From contig CM069133.1 in the NCBI GenBank assembly GCA_035221665.1, forward strand, positions 20,584,001 to 20,648,000: a stretch of DNA of 64,000 nucleotides, in the 5' to 3' direction. The notes beneath the pieces are model-generated. The model worked only from the letters and a program-made list of their open reading frames with translations, was not told the DNA's origin and made no database searches. Each line of letters begins with the position of its first letter. Position 1 is the stretch's first letter. Shown here one piece after another: positions 6,025-63,190 of this stretch. The position numbers and the translations under genes were made by a program. The stretch is from Okamejei kenojei (Eukaryota).

Positions 6025-6325
6025 GTTTTAGTTTTTAGTTTTAGTTTTAGTTGATACAGCGCGGAAACAGGCGCTACAGCCCACTGGGTCCGCGCCGAGC
6101 CGCATATTGACGCTATCCTACACACAGTCGGGACAAATCTTACATTTACCAAGCCAATTAACAAACCTTTGGAATGTGGGAGGAAACCGGAGATCTTGGA
6201 AAAAACCCACACGGGGCGCAGGGAGAACATACAAACTCCGTACAGACAGCGCCCGTAGTCGGGATTGAACCCGGGTCTCTGGCGCTGCAAGCGCTGTAAG
6301 GCAGCAACTCTCCCGCTGCGCCAGC
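6025..6325 (-). mobile_element. V-SINE (HE1-like)
   Basis: tRNA-like head on minus (TGGCGCAGCGG, GGTTCAATCCC), V-domain, (CTAAAA)n tail. Confidence 0.9.
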
Positions 6326-13334: not shown

Positions 13335-13637
13335 TTAGGCTTTTTAGACCTTACGGAGACAGGCCCCTTGGCCCAGCGAGCCCGCGCCGATCACCCCGTA
13401 CACTAACACTATCCTACAAACTAGGGACCATTTACAATCTTTACCGAAGCAAATAAACCTGCAAACCTGTACGTATTTGGTAAAGTGGGAGGAAGCCGGA
13501 GCACCCAGAGAAAACCCACGCAGGTCACGGGGGAAAATGTACAAACTCCGCACAGACAGCACCCACAGTCAGGATCAAACCAGGGTGTCTGGCGCTGTAA
13601 GGCAGCAACTCTACCAGTGCAACACTGTGCTGCCCCT
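13335..13637 (-). mobile_element. V-SINE
   Basis: tRNA-like head, V-domain and tail on minus. Confidence 0.85.
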
Positions 13638-13892: not shown

Positions 13893-14975
13893 GCATAGAA
13901 AAATAGACATGGAAAATAGTGGAGGCCATTCGGCCCTTCGAGCCAGCACTGCCATTCAATATGATCATGGCTGATCATCTACAATCAGTACCCCGTTCCT
14001 GCTTTTTCCCCATATCCCTTGATTCCGTTTGCCCGAAGAGCTAAATCTAACTCTCTCTTGAAAACACCCAGTGAATCGGCCCCCACTGACTTCTGTGTAA
14101 CAGAGAATTCCACAGATTCACAACTCTCTGGGTGAAAACATTTTTTTTCATCTCAGTCCTAAGTGGCCTACCCCTTATTCTTAAACTGTGACCCCTGCTT
14201 CTGGACACCCCAAACATGGGGAACATTTTTCCTGCAGCTAGCCTGTCCAATCTCTTAAGAATTTTATATGTTTCTATAAGATATCCTCTCATCCTTCTAA
14301 ATTCCAGTGGGTACAAGCGCAGTCGACCCATTTGTTCCTCATATGTCACTCCCGCCATCACGGGAATTAACCTAGTGCATCTTTCGCCGCACTCCCTCAA
14401 TAGCAAGAAAGTCCTTCCTCAAATTAGGAGACCAAAACTGCACACGATACTACAGGTGTGGTCTCACCAAGGTCCTGTACAACTGCAGTAGGACCTCCTT
14501 GCTCCTATTCTAAAATCCTCTCGCAATGAAGGCCAAACATGCAATTAGCTTTGGTAGACAAAAATGTCTACCAAAGAAACTCAGCGGGTGAGGCAGCATC
14601 TATGGAGCAAAGGAAATAGGCGACGTTTCGGGTCGAAACCCTTCATTAGCTTTCTTCACTGCCTGCTGTACCTGCATGCTCACTTTCAATGACTGATGTA
14701 CAAGCACACCCAGGTCTCGTTGCACCTCCCCTTTTTCCTAATCTGACAACATTCAGATAATAATCTGCCGTCTTGGTCTTGTTCTTGTCACCTTCTTGTT
14801 TTTGTCACCAAAGTGGATAACCTCACATTTATCCACATTATACTGCATCTGCCATGCATCTGCCCACTCACCCAACCTACCCAAGTCACCCTGCATTCTC
14901 ATGGCATCCTCATCGTGGCTCACACTGCCCCCCCAGCTTTGTGCCATCCAAAAACCTGGAGATGTCACATTTACT
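13893..14975 (-). mobile_element. CR1-clade LINE 3' portion
   Basis: MQGDLGRLGEWADAWQMQYNVDKCEVIHFG and LEFRRMRGYLIETYKILK...QRVVNLWNSL; carries a TSD-flanked insert at 14553-14644. Confidence 0.9.
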
Positions 14976-25897: not shown

Positions 25898-26180
25898 CTA
25901 AGATGCCCGAAAGCCTTTGGCCCACCGGGTCCGTGCTGACCAGCCATCCCTGCACACTAGCACTATCTCACACGCACAAGGGAAAATTTACAATTATACC
26001 AAGCCAAATAACCTACAAACCTCTACATGTTTGGAGTGTGGGAGGAAATCGGAACTCCCAGAGAAAACCTACGCAGGTCACAGGGAGAACGTACAAACTC
26101 CTTACAGACAGCACCCGTCGTCAGGATCGAACCCGGGTCTCTGTAAGGCAACAATTCTACCGCTGAACCACCAGGCAGCC
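25898..26180 (-). mobile_element. V-SINE
   Basis: V-domain and B-box-like GGTTCGATCC on minus. Confidence 0.85.
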
Positions 26181-27993
26181 CATTAAGCAAATTAAAATTT
26201 TAAAAAGTTTCCTTTTCTCCAGAGATGCTGTGTGGCCCGCTGAGTTACTCTAGCTTTTTGTGTCTATTTTACGCAAATTAAGTGCATTAATGAATTATAA
26301 GGGGCTTCTGTAAGGTGCAATGGCTGGAAGCATAATTTAACCTTGCAACAACTGGAGATCCTTTCTCCCAGTGGCTATCAAACTGTGCAACTCCTCCCCC
26401 TTCTGTCGTGGTAAACTGACTCCCCTCCCAAATCTTTGCACATCCCCAATCCTTTCCACTTGTCACTTTAATTTCATGTTTCATACATTTGCGTTTTATG
26501 ACTGTTGACAGATCAATTTCCCCTCCTGGGATCAATAAAGTTCTATCGTATCGTATCGCATCGTCGAACTTCATTTGCCCCTTAGGGAAACTGGCCAGTA
26601 TGTCTGAATTGAAGGATGTTAAAAGATCCTCTTGAATTTGCAGTAGATCAAGGCTTCTATTTGCCATCGGATTTCCTCCATGATATGTGGCTGGGGTCTG
26701 AATCATCAGCAGGATTGCAGGACGGATTTGTTAGCCCTTGAGCCCGATTTGCATTTCAATGACAGACCCCCAGGATGTGCTTCACTATCATTTCTCAATC
26801 TAATCACACCAAGGGAAAGGCTTCACATAATTGGTTTCCTTGCATGGCGATTCCTTTTTTTTCCAGATAGCATCATTGTGTGAAATTGCCCCCTTCTTAT
26901 GCAAATGCCACATTTGTCCAAGTTCACAGCAAGCCATAGGAAAGAAAAGCACAAAGTGCTGGAGTAACTCAGCGGCATCTCTGGAGGACGAAGATTAGTG
27001 ACGTTCCGGGTCAGGACTCAGACTGATTGCAACAGGGTGGAGGAAGCTGGAAACTAAGTGGGGGCGGGGCAAAGCCTGACAATAGATGGACACAGACTGC
27101 TGGAGTAACTCAGCGGGAGAGGCAGTATCTCTGGAGAGAAGGAATGTGCGACGTTTCGGGTCGAGACCGTTCTTTAGACCCAACCCGAAACGTCACCCGT
27201 TCCTTCTTTCCAGAGGTGCGGCCTGTCCCGCTGAATTACTCCAGCATTTTGTGTCTATCTTTGGTTTAAACCAGCATCTGCAGTTGCTTCCAACACAAGT
27301 TAGGTAGATATAGATGGGGGAAGATAGTGGCATTTAAGTGGATTTTGGATACTTGTATATGCAACGAATGGAGGGATATGTATCACATGCAAGGAAAGGA
27401 GATTAATTTCACTTTGTATCACGTTTCAGCATTGACATCGTGGACCAAAAGTCCAATTCCTGTGCTGTACTATGTTTTATGTTCTCTATGTAATGCTCTG
27501 AATTCAACCATCTATTGGTGCTGGTATTGGTTTATTATTGTCATGTGCACTGAGATACAGTGAAAAACGTAGTTTGCGAGCTACACCAAAAGGCACAAAG
27601 TGCTGAAGTAACTCAGCAGGTCATGCAGCATCTCTGGAGAACATGGAGAGGTGACGTTTCAGGTCGAGAACCTTCTTCAGATCTTGTAGAAGGTAGTCAA
27701 AAAAAACTCAGCGGGTGAGGCAGCATCTACGGAGCGAAGGAAATAGGCGACGTTTCGGGTCGAAACCCTACTTCAGACCCACAGAGGGAAGGCAGTGAGA
27801 GAGGAGGTCGTTAAACTGTCTTTGGAGGGGGGAGGGGACCGTCTTCAAAGTAGGCATACCTTGAGGAGATATCGCAGTGGAGTAGACAAAATGCTCAAGA
27901 AGGAACTGCAGATGCTGGAAAATCGAAGGTAGACAGAAAATGCTGGAGATACTCAGCGGGTGAGGCAGCATCTGTGGAGCGAAGGAAATAGGC

Positions 27994-28021
27994 AACGTTT
28001 CGGGTCGAAACCCTTCTTCAG
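27994..28021 (-). ncRNA. Minimal hammerhead motif, UUCG-loop/GUU variant, within a cluster of modules (~27590-28025)
   Basis: Minus strand CTGAAGA A GGGT TTCG ACCC GAAAC GTT. Confidence 0.7.
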
Positions 28022-29189
28022 ATGTTATAGATGTGTATTTGTCCCTGCTATACTGACTTGTTGCTTTGTTTCAATTGGAGTACACTGGTATATTCTATTG
28101 TAGAACATAATCCATGTGTAGGAATGTATTGTTTGCATCCATGTCTATCGACAACAAAACTCTATGTACTGTTATTACTTGTTGGCAATAGCGTCTTTCA
28201 AACGGCATTCAGCTGTTTTGGACTATCTCTGCAATATTATTTTGAGACATCAGCACATCTTGAAACTGTCAAGCAATTACATGGGAGCATCAGGATCAGG
28301 AGCTACATTTATCACCGTACATGCTATCAATATCCAACTTTCACTAATTCGTCAACAAGCAGAACAGATTAATAAATATCTCAAGAATGCAAGAAGCGTG
28401 AATGGGCCTTTCAGTTGTTCCACCATTCGATTAGACCGTGGCTTACCGTTCACCTCACCTCCTCTTACCACCACCAACCCCACAACCTTAGATGCCCCTA
28501 ATATCCGGAGGATCCGGCTTGGGGCACCGCCATGAGGGAGGGGGAGGAACAATGGATAATGGAGGATCTGGTGCGGGGGAGACCACCATGTGGGAGGGGG
28601 AGGGGGGGTGAAAAAAGGGGGACCTGGCACGGGTGTACTTTGTAACTTTGTCAGCACCTTAATGGGCGACCATTTGCACACCTTGGGTAAGCAAGCAAAG
28701 AATTCCACCATGACTTGTCACATGTGACGATAAAGTATTCATTAATTCATTCATTCACATGCAACAATCTTTGTCTTGAATATGCTCAGTGCCAGAACAT
28801 CCACAGTCTTCTCAGAAACAGATTTCCGAAGAATCAAGAGTCAAAGAATCTTTTATTTGTCATATGCATCAGATATGAATCAGAGCAATAAAATTCCCCC
28901 CCCGAAACGTCACCCATTCCTTCTCTCCAGAGATGCTTCGTGTCCCGCTGAGTTACTCCAACTTTCTGTGTCTTATCTTTGGTTTAAACCAGCATCTGCA
29001 GTTCCTTTCTGCACAATGAAATTCGTACTTGCTGCAGCTTTCACAGGCACATGAGTCACAATGACTACAATCGCAGTTTAACAACCGCAAAAATAAATAT
29101 CCAATAAATTATCCATGATTCCAAGTAAATGACCATGACAGTGCAAAACCAAAGTATGGAGAGCAAACAAAGGAGGTCAAAGAACCTGA

Positions 29190-30325: not shown

Positions 30326-31833
30326 ACCTTTCAGGGACCCAAGCAATCCTTCCAGGTCCGACAGAGGTTCACCTGCGCCTCCTCCAACCTCATCTACTGC
30401 ATCCGCTGCTCCAGATGCCAGCTGATCTATATCGGTGAGACCAAGTGGAGGCTTGGCGATCGTTTGCCGAACACCTCCGCTCGGTCCGCAATTTACTTTT
30501 AAAATATATTTCAAAATATACTTTGATAAATATATACAATACATTAACCTTGCGGAAAATCCATCCGAACATTTTCGGAGGCTGTACAATAGATCAATAC
30601 AGTTTAGACATTTCTTTTCCCCAAGTTTCCACAAATCAGTCCCCCACTCGTGCCACAATGGCGTGGGATACCTTCCCTTATATTGAGGGGCGTCTCCACA
30701 TACCGTACCCCCCATGTCCAGCAGCGGAAGGGCGTTAGACTGTGGCCCTCCCCCACCGAGCCTTGGCGTTGGCTGCACCGAGCTTCAGTGCGTCCCTCAG
30801 CACGTACTCCTGCAGTCTGCAGCGGGCCAGTCGGCAACATTTCCCTGACGGACATCTCGCTCTGCTGGGTGGTGAACAATGCCCGGGCAGACCAAAGGGC
30901 GTCTTTTACCGAGTTGATGACCCTCCAGCAGCACTCGATGTCAGCCTCTGAATGTGTCCCTGGGAACAGTCCGTAAATCACAGAGTCCTCTGTGACGCAG
31001 CTGTTCAGGATAAAGCGTACCAGGGACCCTTGCATTTTTCTCCAGACTCTTTTAGCAAACCCACACTCTGTGAAGAGGTGGGCAACCGTCTCCTCGCCAT
31101 AGCAGCCGTCCCGAGGGCAGCGTGCGCTGGCAGTGGGTTCCGACGGTGCAGGAAGGATCTGACTGGGAGGGCTCCCCTCACCGCCAGCCAAGCCAGGTCT
31201 TGGTACTTGTTGGTGAGTTCTGGCGATGAGGCATTTTGCCAGACGAGCTGGGCAGTCTGCTCAGGGAACCACGCCACCGGGTCCATAGAGTCCTTTTCCC
31301 TGCAGTGCCTGCAGGACATTCTGTGCTGACCACTGCCCAATGGACATGTGGTCAAAGGTGTTGGTCCGGAAGAACCCTTCCACCGACGACAGATGGGGCG
31401 GCAATGTCCAGCTGACTGGCACATTGCGTGGCACCTGCGCCAGGCCCATCCTTCTCAACACCGGGGACAGGTAGAACCTCAGCAGGTAGTGACACTTGGT
31501 GCCCACGTGCCTTGGCTCTACACTCCGCCTGATGCAGCCACACACGAAGGTGGCCCTCAGAAGTTGGGCACGCTTTTACCCCGTTGTCTGCTGACTTGTA
31601 CATTTGTACATTTATTGCAGACCGCTCGGTCTGTTAACCCTTGCTGTCTCCTCCCCTTCCCACCTCTCCTCAGCCCTCAGGCTCCTCCTCCTCCTTTTTC
31701 CTTTCTTCTTCTCCCCGACACCGCCACCTCCCATCAGTCTGAACAAGGGTTTCGGCCCGAAACGTTGCCTATTTCCTTCGCTCCTTAGATGCTGCTGCAC
31801 CCGCTGAGTTTCTCCAGCCTTTTGTGTACCCCC
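30326..31833 (+). mobile_element. PLE fragment split by a Tx1 LINE
   Basis: GIY-YIG piece (IYCIRCSRCQLIYIGETK) at 30326-30492; 3' terminal module resumes at ~31621-31833. Confidence 0.8.
30493..31575 (-). mobile_element. Tx1-clade LINE ORF2 C-terminal fragment (zf-RVT), frameshifted
   Basis: WQNASSPELTNKYQDLAWLAVRGALPVRSFLHRR; CPRDGCYGEETVAHLFTECGFAKRVW (CCHC); VKDALWSAR. Confidence 0.85.
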
Positions 31834-32662
31834 GATTAAAGATAATTTGAAGGTCCCCAATTTTGTAGGTGGTAGTTCAGGACCGATCTTTATTGCGTTC
31901 TAAAGACGATTTCTGTTCTAATGCAGTTAACATTTTTCAGTATCTTATTCTCTTATACACTAAAAACTACAATGAATTTATTTAATAACCTCACAGAAAT
32001 AGCAAACAAGATTTGGTGCAGAACTAATAACCTAATTATGTGACACATACATCAAACTTCAAAGGAAACCTCTTCCCTTGAGGTGTTATAAGAAAGATTG
32101 CAAAATTTACATAATGTTAAGTATGTATTTTGTTAATTGTATTATGGAACTAATGACTATAAGAACTATAATTATATAGACCGCTACATAAGAATTATAA
32201 TCTGGCAGTTTGTCAATATAGATGCCAGGGGAATATATCTCCTGGCCAGAATATCTAGAATCTATTTGTGAGAGAAGCTTCAAATTACATGTAGGAAGGA
32301 ACTGCAGATGCTGGTTTACACCGAAGATAGACACAAAATGCTGGAGTAACTTTTCAGACCCTTCTTCAGACTGAGAGTAAGGGGAGAGGGGAGACATAGA
32401 GGTAAGGTGTGAAAACACCGATCAAAGGAGCCGATGATCAGGGAAATGTGGGAGGGATGGTGCATTGTTAGCTGCGGGGAAGGTGACAACGAGGCTTAAC
32501 ACAGAGTAGTGGGTACACAAAAAGCTGGAGAAAACTCAGCGGGTTGCGCAGCATCTAAGGAGCGAAGGAGATAGGCGACGTTTCGGGTCGAGGACCCTTC
32601 TTCAGACTTTACACAGAGTTAGTATTTATCAGGAGGACAACAACTGGTCGGAGAGCTGGTCG

Positions 32663-33810
32663 ACTATTGATGAGGCTCGCACCAGGGTCTCCTCCCTTCA
32701 GAGAACGGGGATTCCCCTCCCCCACTATTGATGAGGCTCGCACCAGGGTCTCCTCCATACCCCGCCAAACACTGCCCTCGATCCCCATTCCCCCACTCGC
32801 AAACAGGGCAGAGTCCCCTGGTCCTCACCTTTCACCCCACCAGCCGGCAATACAACATATAGTCCTCCGCCAATTTCGCCACCTCCAACGTGACCCTCCA
32901 CCCGCCACATCTTCCCATCTCCCCCCTGTCTGCCTTCCGCAAAGACCGCTCCCTCCGCAACTCCCTTGTCCATTCTTCCCTCCCCTCCCACTCTACCCCT
33001 TCCCCGGCACTTTCCCTTGCAACCGCAAGAAATGCAACACTTGTCCCTTCACCTCCCCCCTCCACTCCTTTCAGGGACCCAAGCAGTCCTTCCAGGTCCC
33101 GACAGAGGTTCACTGCACCTCCTCCAACCTCATTACTGCATCCGTTGCTCCAGATGCCAGATGATCTATATCGGTGAGACCAAGCGGAGGCTTGGCGATC
33201 GCTTCGCCGAACACCTCCGCTCGGTCCGCAATAACCAACCCGACCTCCCGGTGCTCAGCACTTCAACTCCCCTCCCATTCCACATCCGACCTCTCGGTCC
33301 TGGGCTCCTCCACGGCCCAGAGTGAGCAACACCGCAAGCTGGATGGAGACAGCACCTCATATTCCGCTTGGCGGAGTCCACTGCATCCTTTGGGCTTGAA
33401 TATTGAATTTTCTCAATTCTGTTAACCCTTGCTGTCTCCCTCCCCGCTTCCCACCTTCCCTCAGCCCTCGGGCCCTGGCATTCCCTCTATCTCTATCTCC
33501 CATCCCCCACCCAAGTCGCACCAGCTTCTCATTTTCACTACCACAAAACAGGCGTACCAATGGCTTGTTCCCTTTTATCACCGATATACTATTTTTGCAT
33601 ATCTTTCACTCATTGTTCCATTATCTCTCCACATCACCAATCTATGTCTCTCGTATTCCCTGATCCCTGGACCAGTCTGAAGAAGGGTCTCGACCCGAAA
33701 CGTCGCCTATCTCCCTTCGCTCCTTAGATGCTGCTGCACCCGCTGAGATTTCTTCCAGCTTTTTGTGTACCCTCGATTCCTCCAGCACTTCTGCAGTTCC
33801 CTTTTTAAAA
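32663..33810 (+). mobile_element. Penelope-like retroelement, 5' truncated, with GIY-YIG endonuclease remnant and hammerhead-bearing terminal repeat
   Basis: GTFPCNRKKCNTCPF (Zn linker) and YCIRCSRCQMIYIGETKRRLGDRFAEHLRSV (GIY-YIG); frameshifted; inverted terminal copies lie upstream at ~32290-32660. Confidence 0.9.
33677..33704 (+). ncRNA. Minimal hammerhead ribozyme motif, intact core, in PLE terminal repeat
   Basis: CTGAAGA A GGGT CTCG ACCC GAAAC GTC; loopless palindromic helix III (ACGT). Confidence 0.75.
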
Positions 33811-46986: not shown

Positions 46987-48812
46987 AGCATGGTGGCGCA
47001 GCAGTAGTGTTGCTCCCTTACAGCGCCAGAGACCTGGGTTCGATTCTGACTCTGGGTGCTGTCTGTACGGAGTTTGCACGTACTCCCCATGGGCCGTGTG
47101 GGTTTCTCTGGGTGCTATGGTTTCATCTACACAGTTTGGGTTTTTTCGTCTAGGTTAATTGGCTTCTGTAAATTAGACAATAGATAATTGGCAATAGACA
47201 AAAGGTGCAGGAGTAGGCCATTCGGCCCTTCGAGCCAGCACCGCCATTCAATGTGATCATGGCTGATCATTCCCCAATCTATACCCCGTTCTGCCTCCTC
47301 CCCATATCACCTGACTCCGCTATTTTTAAGAGCCCTATCTAGCTCTCTCTTGAAAGCATCCAGAGAACCTGCCTCCACCGCCCTCTGAGACAGAGAATTC
47401 CACAGACTCACCACTCTGTGAGAAAAAGTCAAGTCAAGTCACATTTATTTCTATAGCACATTTAAAAAACAACTCTCGTTGACCAAAGTGCTTTACATTT
47501 GTTATAAGAGTAGTATACACAAGCAGGCTACATACATATATACAAATAGCCCTCGCTCAGAGGACGTCAGGAAAGGCTTGGGAGAACAGATACGTTTTTA
47601 GACTAGACTTAAAGGAGTCGATGGAGGGGGCAGTTCTGATGGGGAGGGGGATGCTGTTCCACAGTCTAGGAGCTGCGACCGCAAAGGCGTGGTCGCCCCT
47701 GAGCTTATGCCTAGACCGCGGGACATTCAGCAACCCCAAGTCGGCCGATCTGAGGGACCTGGAGGTGGTGTAGTGGGTGAGAAGACTTTTAATGTAGGTG
47801 GGTGCAAGCCCATTGAGGGCTTTGTAGACAGAGAGGAGGGTCTTGAAATTAATTCGGAACCGCACAGGGAGCCAGTGGAGGGAGGCCAGGATCGGGGTGA
47901 TGTGGTCCCTTTTTCGGGTGCCCGTCAGGAGTCTCGCTGCGGCGTTTTGGACCAGTTGCAGGCGGGACAGGGAAGATTGGCTGATGCCAGTGTAAAGGGA
48001 GTCGCAGTAATCTAGGCGGGAGGAGATAAACGTGTGGATGATCTTTTCAAGGTCATCAAACTGGAGGAATTGTTTTATTTTAGTTATCATCCGAAGCTGG
48101 AAGAAGCTAGCTTTAACCATGGCATTGACTTGTTTGTCAAACTTCAGTGCTGAGTCAAATATCACGCCAAGGTTTTTGACGTGAGGTTTGAGTAGTGGGG
48201 TAAGGCTTCCAAGGCTGCCTGCTATCATTTTGATTGTGTCCGAGGGGCCGAGAATGATGACCTCAGACTTACTCTTGTTTAGTTGGAAGGAAAATTGTTT
48301 CCTCATCTCCGTTCTAAATGGCCTACCCCTTATTCTTAAACTGTGGCCCCTGGTTCTGGACTCCCTCAACACCGGGAACATGTTTCCTGCCTCTAGTGTG
48401 TCCAAGCTCTTAACAATCTTATATGTTTCAATGAGATCCCCTCTCATCCTTCCAAACTCCAGAGTGTACAAGCCCAGCTGCTCCATTCTCTCAGCATATG
48501 ACAGTCCCGCCATCCCGGGAATTAACCTTATAAACCTACGCTGCACTCCCTCAATAGCAAGAATGTCCTTCCTCAAATTAGGGGACCAAAACTGCACGCA
48601 ATACTCCAGGTGTGGTCTCACTAGGGCTCTGTACAACTGCAGAAGGACCTCTTTGCTCCTATCTTCGATTCCTCTTGTTATAAAGGCCAACATGCCATTC
48701 GCTTTCTTCACTGCCTGCTGTACCTGAGAGTGGAGGATAGAACTAGTGTATGGATTCTTGGTCGGTGTGGACTTGGTGGCCCAAAGGGCTGTATCTCTAA
48801 AAACTAAAACTA
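46987..48812. mobile_element. Triple nest: V-SINE (+) containing CR1 (~47175-48725, minus) containing L2
   Basis: SINE head 46987-47173 and tail ~48730-48812; CR1 peptide QVQQAVKKANGMLAFITRG...RTRGHSLRIRG. Confidence 0.9.
47426..48296 (-). mobile_element. L2-clade LINE 3' fragment with uninterrupted reading frame
   Basis: QLNKSKSEV...VKNLGVIFDS...FISSRLDYCDSL...LQLVQNAAARLL...HITPILASLHWLP...APRLWNSIP...FKSSLKTYLF; (TTGAC)n tail. Confidence 0.92.
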
Positions 48813-49254: not shown

Positions 49255-50062
49255 ACGTGTAAAAACCGCAAGAAATGCTACATTTGTCTGCAACCCGCAA
49301 GAAATGCACGCTCGCTTGTACCTTCACCTCCCACCCTCCACTCCTTTCAGGGACCCAAGCTGTCCTTTCCAGGTCCCGACAGAGGTTCACTGCACCTCCT
49401 CCAACCTCATCTACTGCATCCCGACTGCTGGCTCCAGATGCCAGAGATGATCTATATCGGTGAGACAAGCGGAGGCTTGGCAGATCGTTTCGCCGAACAC
49501 CCTCCGCCTCGGTTCCACAAAAAAAACCAACCTGACCTCCCGGGTCGCCTCAGCAACATTCAACTCCCCCTCCCATATCCGTATCCGGCCTCTGGTCCTG
49601 GGTCCTCCATCCATGGGGCCAGTGAGTGAGCAACACCGCATAGTTGGAGGACTACAGCACCTCATATTACGCTTGGGGAGTCTGCATCCTTTGGGCTTGA
49701 ACATTGAATTTTCTCAATTCTGTTTCACCCATGCTGTCTCCTCCCTTTTTGCCCACCTCTCCCTCAGCCTCGGGCCCTGGCATTCCCTTCTCATCTCTTA
49801 TCTCCTCCCCAACATTAGTTGCAACTAGCTTCTCATTTTCACACCACAAACAGCTTACAATGGCTTGTTCCCTTTATCATCGACACTTTTTTGCATATCT
49901 TTCATTCATTGTTCTTTATCTCTCCACATCACCGTCTATATCTCTCGTTTCCCTGATCCCTGACCAGTCTGAAGAAGGGTCTCGACCCGAAACGTCGCCT
50001 ATCTCCTTCGCTCCTTAGATGCTGCTGCACCCGCTGAGTTTCTCCAGCTTTTTGTGTAACCC
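49255..50062 (+). mobile_element. Penelope-like element, second 5'-truncated copy
   Basis: Colinear with ~33020-33773 (MIYIGET...DRFAEH); same terminal module. Confidence 0.85.
49969..49996 (+). ncRNA. Minimal hammerhead ribozyme motif, intact core
   Basis: Identical 28-mer to 33677-33704. Confidence 0.75.
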
Positions 50063-50069
50063 CCAGTGT

Positions 50070-50335
50070 AAAAACAAGCTCTTTGGCCCACTGAGTCCGT
50101 GCCGACCAGCGTTCCCTGTGCACTAGCACTACCCTAAGCACACTAGAAAAATGTTACCTAGGCAAATGAACCTACAAACGTGTACGTCTTGGAGTGTGGG
50201 AGGAAACCGAAGCTCGAGGAGAAAAGCCACAGGGTCACGGAGAGGACATGCAAACCCCGTCCAGACAGCACCCGTAGTCAGGATTGAACCCGGGTCTCTG
50301 GCACTAGAGGCGGCAGCTCTATACAGTGGACACAG
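50070..50335 (-). mobile_element. V-SINE
   Basis: V-domain and GGTTCAATCC on minus. Confidence 0.8.
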
Positions 50336-62599: not shown

Positions 62600-63190
62600 A
62601 CTTTGAAGATACAGCAATGAAACAAGCCCTTCAGACCATACAAATTTCCATGCTGGCCAGATGCTCAGGCATATCCTACACGCTACCGGACAAATTTTTT
62701 TACAACTCATTCCCAAAGCCAATGAAGTAAACGAAACCTTGTGCGATTTGTGGGTTTAAAAGTTATGGGAGGAAAACTGAACACAACCTGAGAAAACCCA
62801 CATGGTGACGGGGAGAATGATCAAACCCTGTACAGACAGCACCCGTAGTCAGGATGGAACCCGGGTCTCCGGCGCTGTAAGGCAGCAACTCTACCACTGC
62901 GCCACCGTGCCATTATCAGGCAACTGAACGGTCCTTTCATCAGCTGGAATGCATTCCTGACCTCCCATCGACCTCATTGGAAACCTTTGAACTGTTTCAT
63001 AATTGGACTTTATGGGACTTCACTGTCCTATCTCGCGCTAAATATTGCAGTCTTGACCCTTTATCTGAGCACTGTGGATAGATTGATTGTATTCACACAT
63101 GGCCGTTTCCTTCACAGCTTAGCACGCTAACAAAAGCTCTTCACTGCACCTCCATGCACATGATAATAACATACTAAACTAAACTGAACA
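62600..63190. mobile_element. V-SINE (minus, ~62600-62912) followed by a Rex 3' UTR (plus)
   Basis: Head GGCACGGTGGCGCAGTGGTAG on minus; TTATCAGGCAACTGAAC...ACTAAACTAAAC. Confidence 0.75.

Follow-up and report, generated by a model that had tools for sequence, protein, structure and literature searches.

How did a fragment of a hammerhead ribozyme come to stand alone inside a decayed LINE, between the two copies of a short target-site duplication (TSD)? The question is raised by a 92-nt insert (positions 14553-14644, minus strand) in the 64-kb stretch of Okamejei kenojei DNA analysed here, hereafter the window. A preliminary description had taken it for a unit of about 0.1 kb that integrates as such, belonging either to an independent SINE- or retrozyme-like family or to the extreme truncations of Penelope-like elements (PLEs). 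Based on comparison of many genomic copies, we favour, with a probability of about 0.7, the reading that short copies of this kind, thousands of which break off at a single point and often bear an extra G, are strong-stop cDNAs which would have run off the capped 5' end of PLE mRNA, this copy having lost 8 more bases. The single insertion is ordinary and no new family is involved, as the insert is a PLE module of known class; it is the mechanistic footprint that is new, and the interest is carried by the population signal.

The 9-nt repeat ATTAGCTTT lies, as read on the plus strand, at 14544-14552 (left copy) and 14645-14653 (right copy) with 92 nt between, and these previously given coordinates were verified. 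The repeat occurs as a single copy in two sister LINEs within the window (46284-45384 and 48303-48726), and when the insert and one TSD copy were excised in silico the flanks aligned gap-free to both, with 78.6% identity to the former and 83.6% to the latter. Since the sister LINE sites are empty, the authenticity of the insertion is settled, and it is confirmed that 14553-14644 is not an erosion product. The left TSD copy would have provided the primer end for cDNA synthesis. Among young copies, the window included, TSDs of at least 8 nt were found in 16 of 64, vs. 7 of 150 shuffled flank pairs, and ranged in length from 8 to 25 nt. The host is a decayed LINE fragment comprising the end of ORF2 (13923-14948, minus strand), frameshifted and carrying stops; from its ORF2 motifs we take it to be CR1-like, and a Pfam search of the sister LINE ORF gave no match. 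The earlier statement that the CR1 reads through once the insert is removed holds for the colinear DNA but not for the frame, which shifts just past the site and meets several stops.

With the C of the hammerhead box CTGAAGA as reference for all positions, sequence comparison assigned the insert to subfamily A of a Neptune-like PLE, of which it is the 3' terminal module. It runs from +5 of the core to +93, the start site that leaves no tail, and ends there in TTTTGTCTACC; no homology was seen between the target and this 3' end. The insert begins at +5 and hence lacks CTGAA of the box. The putative remnant of a minimal type I hammerhead at 14622-14644 (minus strand; motif layout as described in PMC4209133) keeps GA of the CUGANGA box, stem II, GAAAC and the GUC cut site, and is predicted to be inactive because CUGAA is missing. 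At the 5' joints of TSD-bearing young copies 1-3 nt of microhomology is often seen, and in this copy the minus-strand end of the right TSD (GCTAAT) resembles the missing element bases (TCTGAA), which to judge from the letters is likely an imperfect microhomology. A second, independent PLE module, of subfamily B, occupies the same CR1 site with the same +5 joint (L037:6657-6744), a recurrence that fits trimming through annealing to an element-like target end. Inserts at this CR1 position amounted to 6 exact-pattern cases genome-wide, a count with no denominator, and site-specific targeting of the position was not retained as an explanation.

The insert also contains a fold-back, which alignment to the family reference and DNA folding resolved into a perfect 12-bp hairpin on the plus strand (arms 14549-14560 and 14565-14576, loop AAAA; -12.2 kcal/mol) that includes four target bases. 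Where the family has CCAG, this copy has eight nucleotides (14567-14574) that were copied by fold-back from the end of the insert and two bases of the target, a replacement that the first inspection of this locus had missed. The fold-back arose after the cDNA was linked to the target, during insertion or later replication. Such structures are rare, an arm of at least 8 bp being present in only 1 of 128 other copies scanned. At two query-picked loci (L004, L012) this position, some 14 nt from the start site, has likewise been replaced by a fold-back.

Module matches number 67 within the window, against 0 for a reversed-sequence control. At other loci the sequence upstream of the module is a pyrimidine-rich UTR, about 100 nt long in subfamily A, 235 nt in B and 210 nt in older copies, which leads into the end of a GIY-YIG endonuclease. 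Some A copies reach this endonuclease end; the complete parent is known from subfamily B (L032), no whole subfamily A element having been recovered. L032 consists of a pLTR, a frameshifted ORF with reverse transcriptase (RT) motifs and endonuclease, and a second pLTR, the tandem being flanked by a 10-nt direct repeat. The frames of L032 and L031 show the RT followed by a C-terminal GIY-YIG domain with two cysteines between GIY and YIG (CCHH), preceded by the linker CNRKKCNTC (CX4CxxC; the Neptune criterion is CX2-5CxxC). A first Pfam search of the parent and host frames at 0.01 gave no match; GIY-YIG on the parent frame was weak (E 3e-4; 21.5 bits, just under the cut-off of 22.6), and the parent's look-alikes in the Atlas scored 0.96 for GIY-YIG (56% of members) and 0.92 for RVT_1 (48%). 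In the pLTR the core boxes of a minimal hammerhead and a palindromic ACGT were located by eye, with a helix I of apparently only 2 bp; Rfam at gathering score found no match in the window and the minimum free energy folds contained no hammerhead. The parent is a canonical EN+ PLE, with a partial pLTR tandem, an optional tail, inverted 5' copies and variable TSDs, and its motifs suggest the Neptune/Nematis pattern, for which we use "Neptune-like". As described in PMC8557442, EN+ PLEs of Neptune/Nematis type share with it the two-cysteine GIY-YIG and the CX4CxxC linker, and likewise partial tandems, inverted 5' arms, an optional 30-40-nt tail, variable TSDs and, to judge from the core boxes, a minimal pLTR hammerhead; a CX2-5CxxC linker is common to Neptune and Nematis and absent from Penelope/Poseidon. 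Long subfamily B copies extending toward the endonuclease region occur in the window at 32559-33800 and 49300-50070 (plus strand), the former with an inverted short arm at 32514-32609.

An unbiased sample, drawn as 78 stretches of 10 kb at even spacing (778.5 kb of called bases, 43% GC), yielded 334 module matches, about 430 per Mb. Ends were counted in 73 young copies, defined by at least 90% identity to A or B over at least 40 nt and lying clear of stretch edges, with older matches and 30 query-picked loci left out of all end counts. At the 3' side, 43 copies ended at +88 to +102, 28 at +125 to +133, which corresponds to a tail of about 35 nt, and 2 elsewhere; L032 has this tail at one place only, behind the module where the 5' pLTR meets the ORF. 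The proposal that the module ends in TTTTGTCTACC is right for this copy and for the 43, but with 28 of 73 copies tailed this is not the sole 3' end. By analogy, the two ends would represent internal RT initiation at two sites, as demonstrated in vitro for Poseidon PAc, a PLE of the anole (PMC11167929). In that system as in ours, the tail is set by a pair of adjacent internal start sites, target and RNA share no homology at the start, either strand can be extended, and the hammerhead cut is dispensable. It belongs to another clade, its model uses multi-copy tandem transcripts, and cDNA run-off at a nearby capped end is not discussed in the available main text of that paper, which calls the PLE steps after the internal start unvalidated.

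The 5' ends of the same copies were far from evenly spread. Just over half (37 of 73; 23 of subfamily B and 14 of A) fell within the 16 nt from -9 to +6, while 12 lay at +7 to +50, 5 beyond +50, 3 at -10 to -99, 7 at -100 to -499 and 9 were longer. Expressed per nucleotide, this is 5.6% at the hammerhead edge vs. 0.44 (+7 to +50), 0.19 (-10 to -99) and 0.14 (-100 to -499), i.e. 13-40 times the rate elsewhere; the pile-up extends from about -5 to +6, and starts within the peak scatter over -7 to -1. The preliminary description was right in favouring insertion over erosion, and the truncation lengths form a sharp short-unit peak, not the smooth continuum that it had named, along with a lack of independent subfamily structure, as the sign of ordinary truncated PLEs. 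The 92-nt insert is itself off the mode, as it starts at +5 rather than -3 and has no extra G. None of the 73 copies began at the ribozyme cut (+26 to +30), and hammerhead cleavage was rejected as the origin of the 5' end. Among exact young B copies that reach -3, 12533 of 18545 continued to -11 (10 of 23 in the sample), a difference that points either to a leaky stop or to an excess of long copies in the youngest set; when 21 copies starting with C that failed the -11 match were fetched, 6 proved to be long copies with a point change, so that long copies are common.

It is very improbable that these are ordinary random 5' truncations with a peak produced by alignment to diverged UTRs. The different pyrimidine-rich UTRs of older subfamilies do halt alignments at the hammerhead, and the end of the present copy (+5) is off the mode. 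Still, the peak holds in B copies of 96-99% identity (23 of 37) with TSDs abutting the end, a pyrimidine-rich flank was seen in 1 of 37 peak copies, the one that may be a miscalled older or other subfamily, and purine junctions at -3 (1779) exceeded those at +14 (168) and -7 (231), counts obtained with patterns of different length.

We also consider improbable an independent pLTR-derived SINE- or retrozyme-like family, transcribed from its own short masters and moved by PLE protein, even though the units have fixed lengths of about 97 and 133 nt and TSDs, reach 334 matches in 778.5 kb, and might in some cases be re-transcribed, and non-autonomous PLE derivatives such as MRC1 and retrozymes are known. 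Against such a family, no variant separates short from long copies in either subfamily (smallest p 0.08, from small samples of 26 short and 10 long in A and 32 and 12 in B), the peak is present in both subfamilies, the copies are mostly not in tandem and none begins at the cut site. Jump products, described below, include the tail and body to +240, so the template continued into the ORF. All 92 nt of the insert are pLTR or fold-back, and no tRNA, 7SL or 5S Pol III head of the kind that defines a SINE was found, in agreement with the absence of Rfam matches from the window. Non-LTR retrozymes, as described in bioRxiv 10.64898/2026.07.22.740005 (and in PMC4209133 for the minimal hammerhead), resemble our copies in being pLTR-derived, in their type I hammerhead and in their many dispersed monomers, but they are arranged in tandem, every unit having a complete hammerhead. 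Units here do not run from cut site to cut site, and the solo, non-tandem copy without CUGAA was accordingly not classed with them. Of the two identities first proposed for the insert, the independent family was not borne out, and "extreme PLE truncation", which is closer to the data, fails in that the truncation point is fixed rather than random; neither option fully fits because of this fixed point. PMC4209133 ascribes solo minimal hammerheads to truncated PLEs and proposes a circular template, and PMC8557442 reports frequent 5' truncation in EN+ PLEs, not described in its available text as fixed at the hammerhead edge or as bearing an extra G. Searches of the open-access literature yielded no account of a fixed 5' boundary or an extra G in PLEs, though subscription papers, Repbase notes and supplements may contain one.

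The base at the boundary carries a further signal. In genome-wide exact counts for subfamily B, A(-3) was preceded by C in 16311 cases, G in 992, A in 787 and T in 455, and C(-4) was preceded by a purine in 994, with a G:A ratio of 70:30 by eye among the first 100 matches listed. At the control positions -8 and +13 purines numbered 231 and 168, with G:A ratios, also by eye, of 40:60 and 47:53; tested against the pooled controls, the G excess gave p values of 0.001 and 2e-5. These tests concern subfamily B, and the 92-nt insert is of subfamily A. TSDs were present in 13 of 30 G-start copies examined, with the G outside the TSD in 10, target-derived in 2 and unclear in 1, whereas among 20 A-start copies examined, 12 had a TSD and the A was target-derived in 6, a comparison of few copies that were chosen by their first base.

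The boundary sequence YCAGT fits the initiator consensus. Transcription start sites inside the pLTR are described for Penelope and Chlamys-3 (PMC8557442, PMC2377424), and the untemplated G at the 5' ends of full-length L1 and SVA copies has been attributed to the cap (PMC3287187). Considering the fixed boundary, the extra G, the pLTR start sites and YCAGT together, we infer a capped RNA 5' end at -4/-3. Transcription of Penelope in D. virilis starts far upstream of the hammerhead, ahead of an intron (PMC2377424, PMC4209133), so the geometry differs here. A DPE-like motif at +28 was set aside as a lead, as just ACGT matches RGACGTGY. Four assembled-contig datasets, which we presume to be RNA, showed depth falling from module to body, a profile that cannot rank the parts, and contained no start, end or interpretable splice joint.

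A PLE origin is also compatible with another cause of the boundary, in which the RT stalls, or the RNA is processed to an uncapped end, at the 5' edge of the hammerhead. The ribozyme itself, folded or bound by protein, a nuclease cut or the near-palindrome TCAG-T-CTGA might be responsible, and the G would stem from a terminal C added by the RT. We regard this as unlikely. The boundary does coincide with the 5' strand of helix I, is passed by two thirds of the youngest B copies and is a frequent meeting point of head-to-head arms, but an RT that travels 3' to 5' is expected to halt on reaching a structure and not once past it, the controls at -8 and +13 have no G excess, and the RT stops again at the same place after jumping back (27560-28080, L135). 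A stall at an intron branch point was rejected on general grounds, the candidate adenines being 4-11 nt from AG and too close.

Such jumps leave characteristic junctions. We found 480 same-sense jump-backs genome-wide, in which a partial module directly precedes a new start at about -3, and 0 in the control. Among the first 100 matches listed, read by eye, the base before AGT was C in 63 (the reference), G in 32, A in 2 and T in 3, G thus making up 32 of the 37 non-reference bases. In other products the jump from the same end lands in the 5' body, at +199 or +240, and synthesis halts once more at -1 (27560-28080, L140, L137). The window copy at 27560-28080 (minus strand) consists of module, tail and 5' body to +240, an extra G and a second module from -2, and is clearly a jump-back product; L137, of the other subfamily, shares its +240 joint. 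A composite at 31734-31856 (plus strand), with an A-type UTR and 5' module half and a B-like 3' half, is a possible template-switch chimera, and as the one candidate of its kind it was not interpretable as proof of RNA-RNA jumps. Short tandem arrays of the hammerhead core, with units of 49 nt and about 41 nt, were seen at G000:C2:52296734-52296972 and in L024; possibly such arrays are made by repeated jump-backs and offer a route to retrozyme-like satellites.

The junctions bear as well on a small circular or spliced RNA as the source, formed by hammerhead cleavage and ligation or by back-splicing of AAG|GTATG (+161) to CAG|TCTG (-1), which we hold to be extremely improbable. Both splice-like motifs are present, the intron of Penelope has its end at helix I and PMC4209133 proposes a circular template, but the exact back-splice joint was found at 3 places among 15 matches genome-wide, a shared spliced first exon in 0 of 128 upstream flanks, and jump-back acceptors spread over +26 to +45, cleaved ends (+27) not being concentrated among them. 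The donor-like AAG|GTATG at +161 (L032:4560-4575, minus strand), kept in A, B and older copies, overlaps the first ORF ATG and is possibly an intron start.

Returning to strong-stop cDNA as the preferred reading, the following order of events can be proposed. The GIY-YIG endonuclease would make staggered nicks that give rise to the TSD, and synthesis would begin inside the RNA, at +93/94 for tail-less copies or at +129 for tailed ones, the mechanism being borrowed from PMC11167929 and the 3' ends being those observed here. Synthesis would then cease where the 5' ends accumulate, immediately ahead of the hammerhead core at about -5 to +6; this boundary would be the transcription start, with an Inr-like YCAGT and A at -3, and the extra G would be copied from the cap. 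The resulting cDNA of about 97 or 133 nt would be joined to the target as a solo unit, as at 14553-14644, or alternatively be joined head-to-head to a second cDNA or jump back into the same RNA; these products are all represented in the genome and the route to them is conjectural. More speculatively, the long copies would arise when the cDNA jumps seamlessly to the 3' pLTR or when tandem copies are read through into one transcript.

PLEs are the sister group of telomerase. In LTR retroelements, minus-strand strong-stop DNA is primed about 100 nt from the capped 5' end, runs off that end and jumps to another template. The primer here, in contrast, would be nicked chromosomal DNA, with no tRNA primer and no integrase, so that failed products become fixed in the genome. 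Tentatively, and at somewhat less than even odds, we extend this to PLEs as a whole, which may replicate through a retrovirus-like, chromosome-primed strong-stop intermediate. Their capped mRNA would start 3-4 nt before the hammerhead, and the RT, starting about 97 or 133 nt downstream, would run off the cap and have to jump to the 3' pLTR; the solo hammerheads that are so abundant in animal genomes would record first jumps that failed, and repeated jumping at that place would account for pLTRs, tandems and inverted arms alike. If the short copies are strong-stop products, solo hammerheads and supposed mini-SINEs would in large part be abortive PLE products. The strong-stop reading predicts a discrete cDNA intermediate of about 97 or 133 nt, and the fixed 5' boundary with its cap-like G would map the RNA start from DNA alone.

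Apart from the PLE modules, the window contains dispersed repeats of about 110 nt with a tRNA-like appearance (6168-6290, 13478-13634, 26018-26148, 50187-50305 and 62758-62910), possibly akin to the HE1-type SINEs of sharks and rays.
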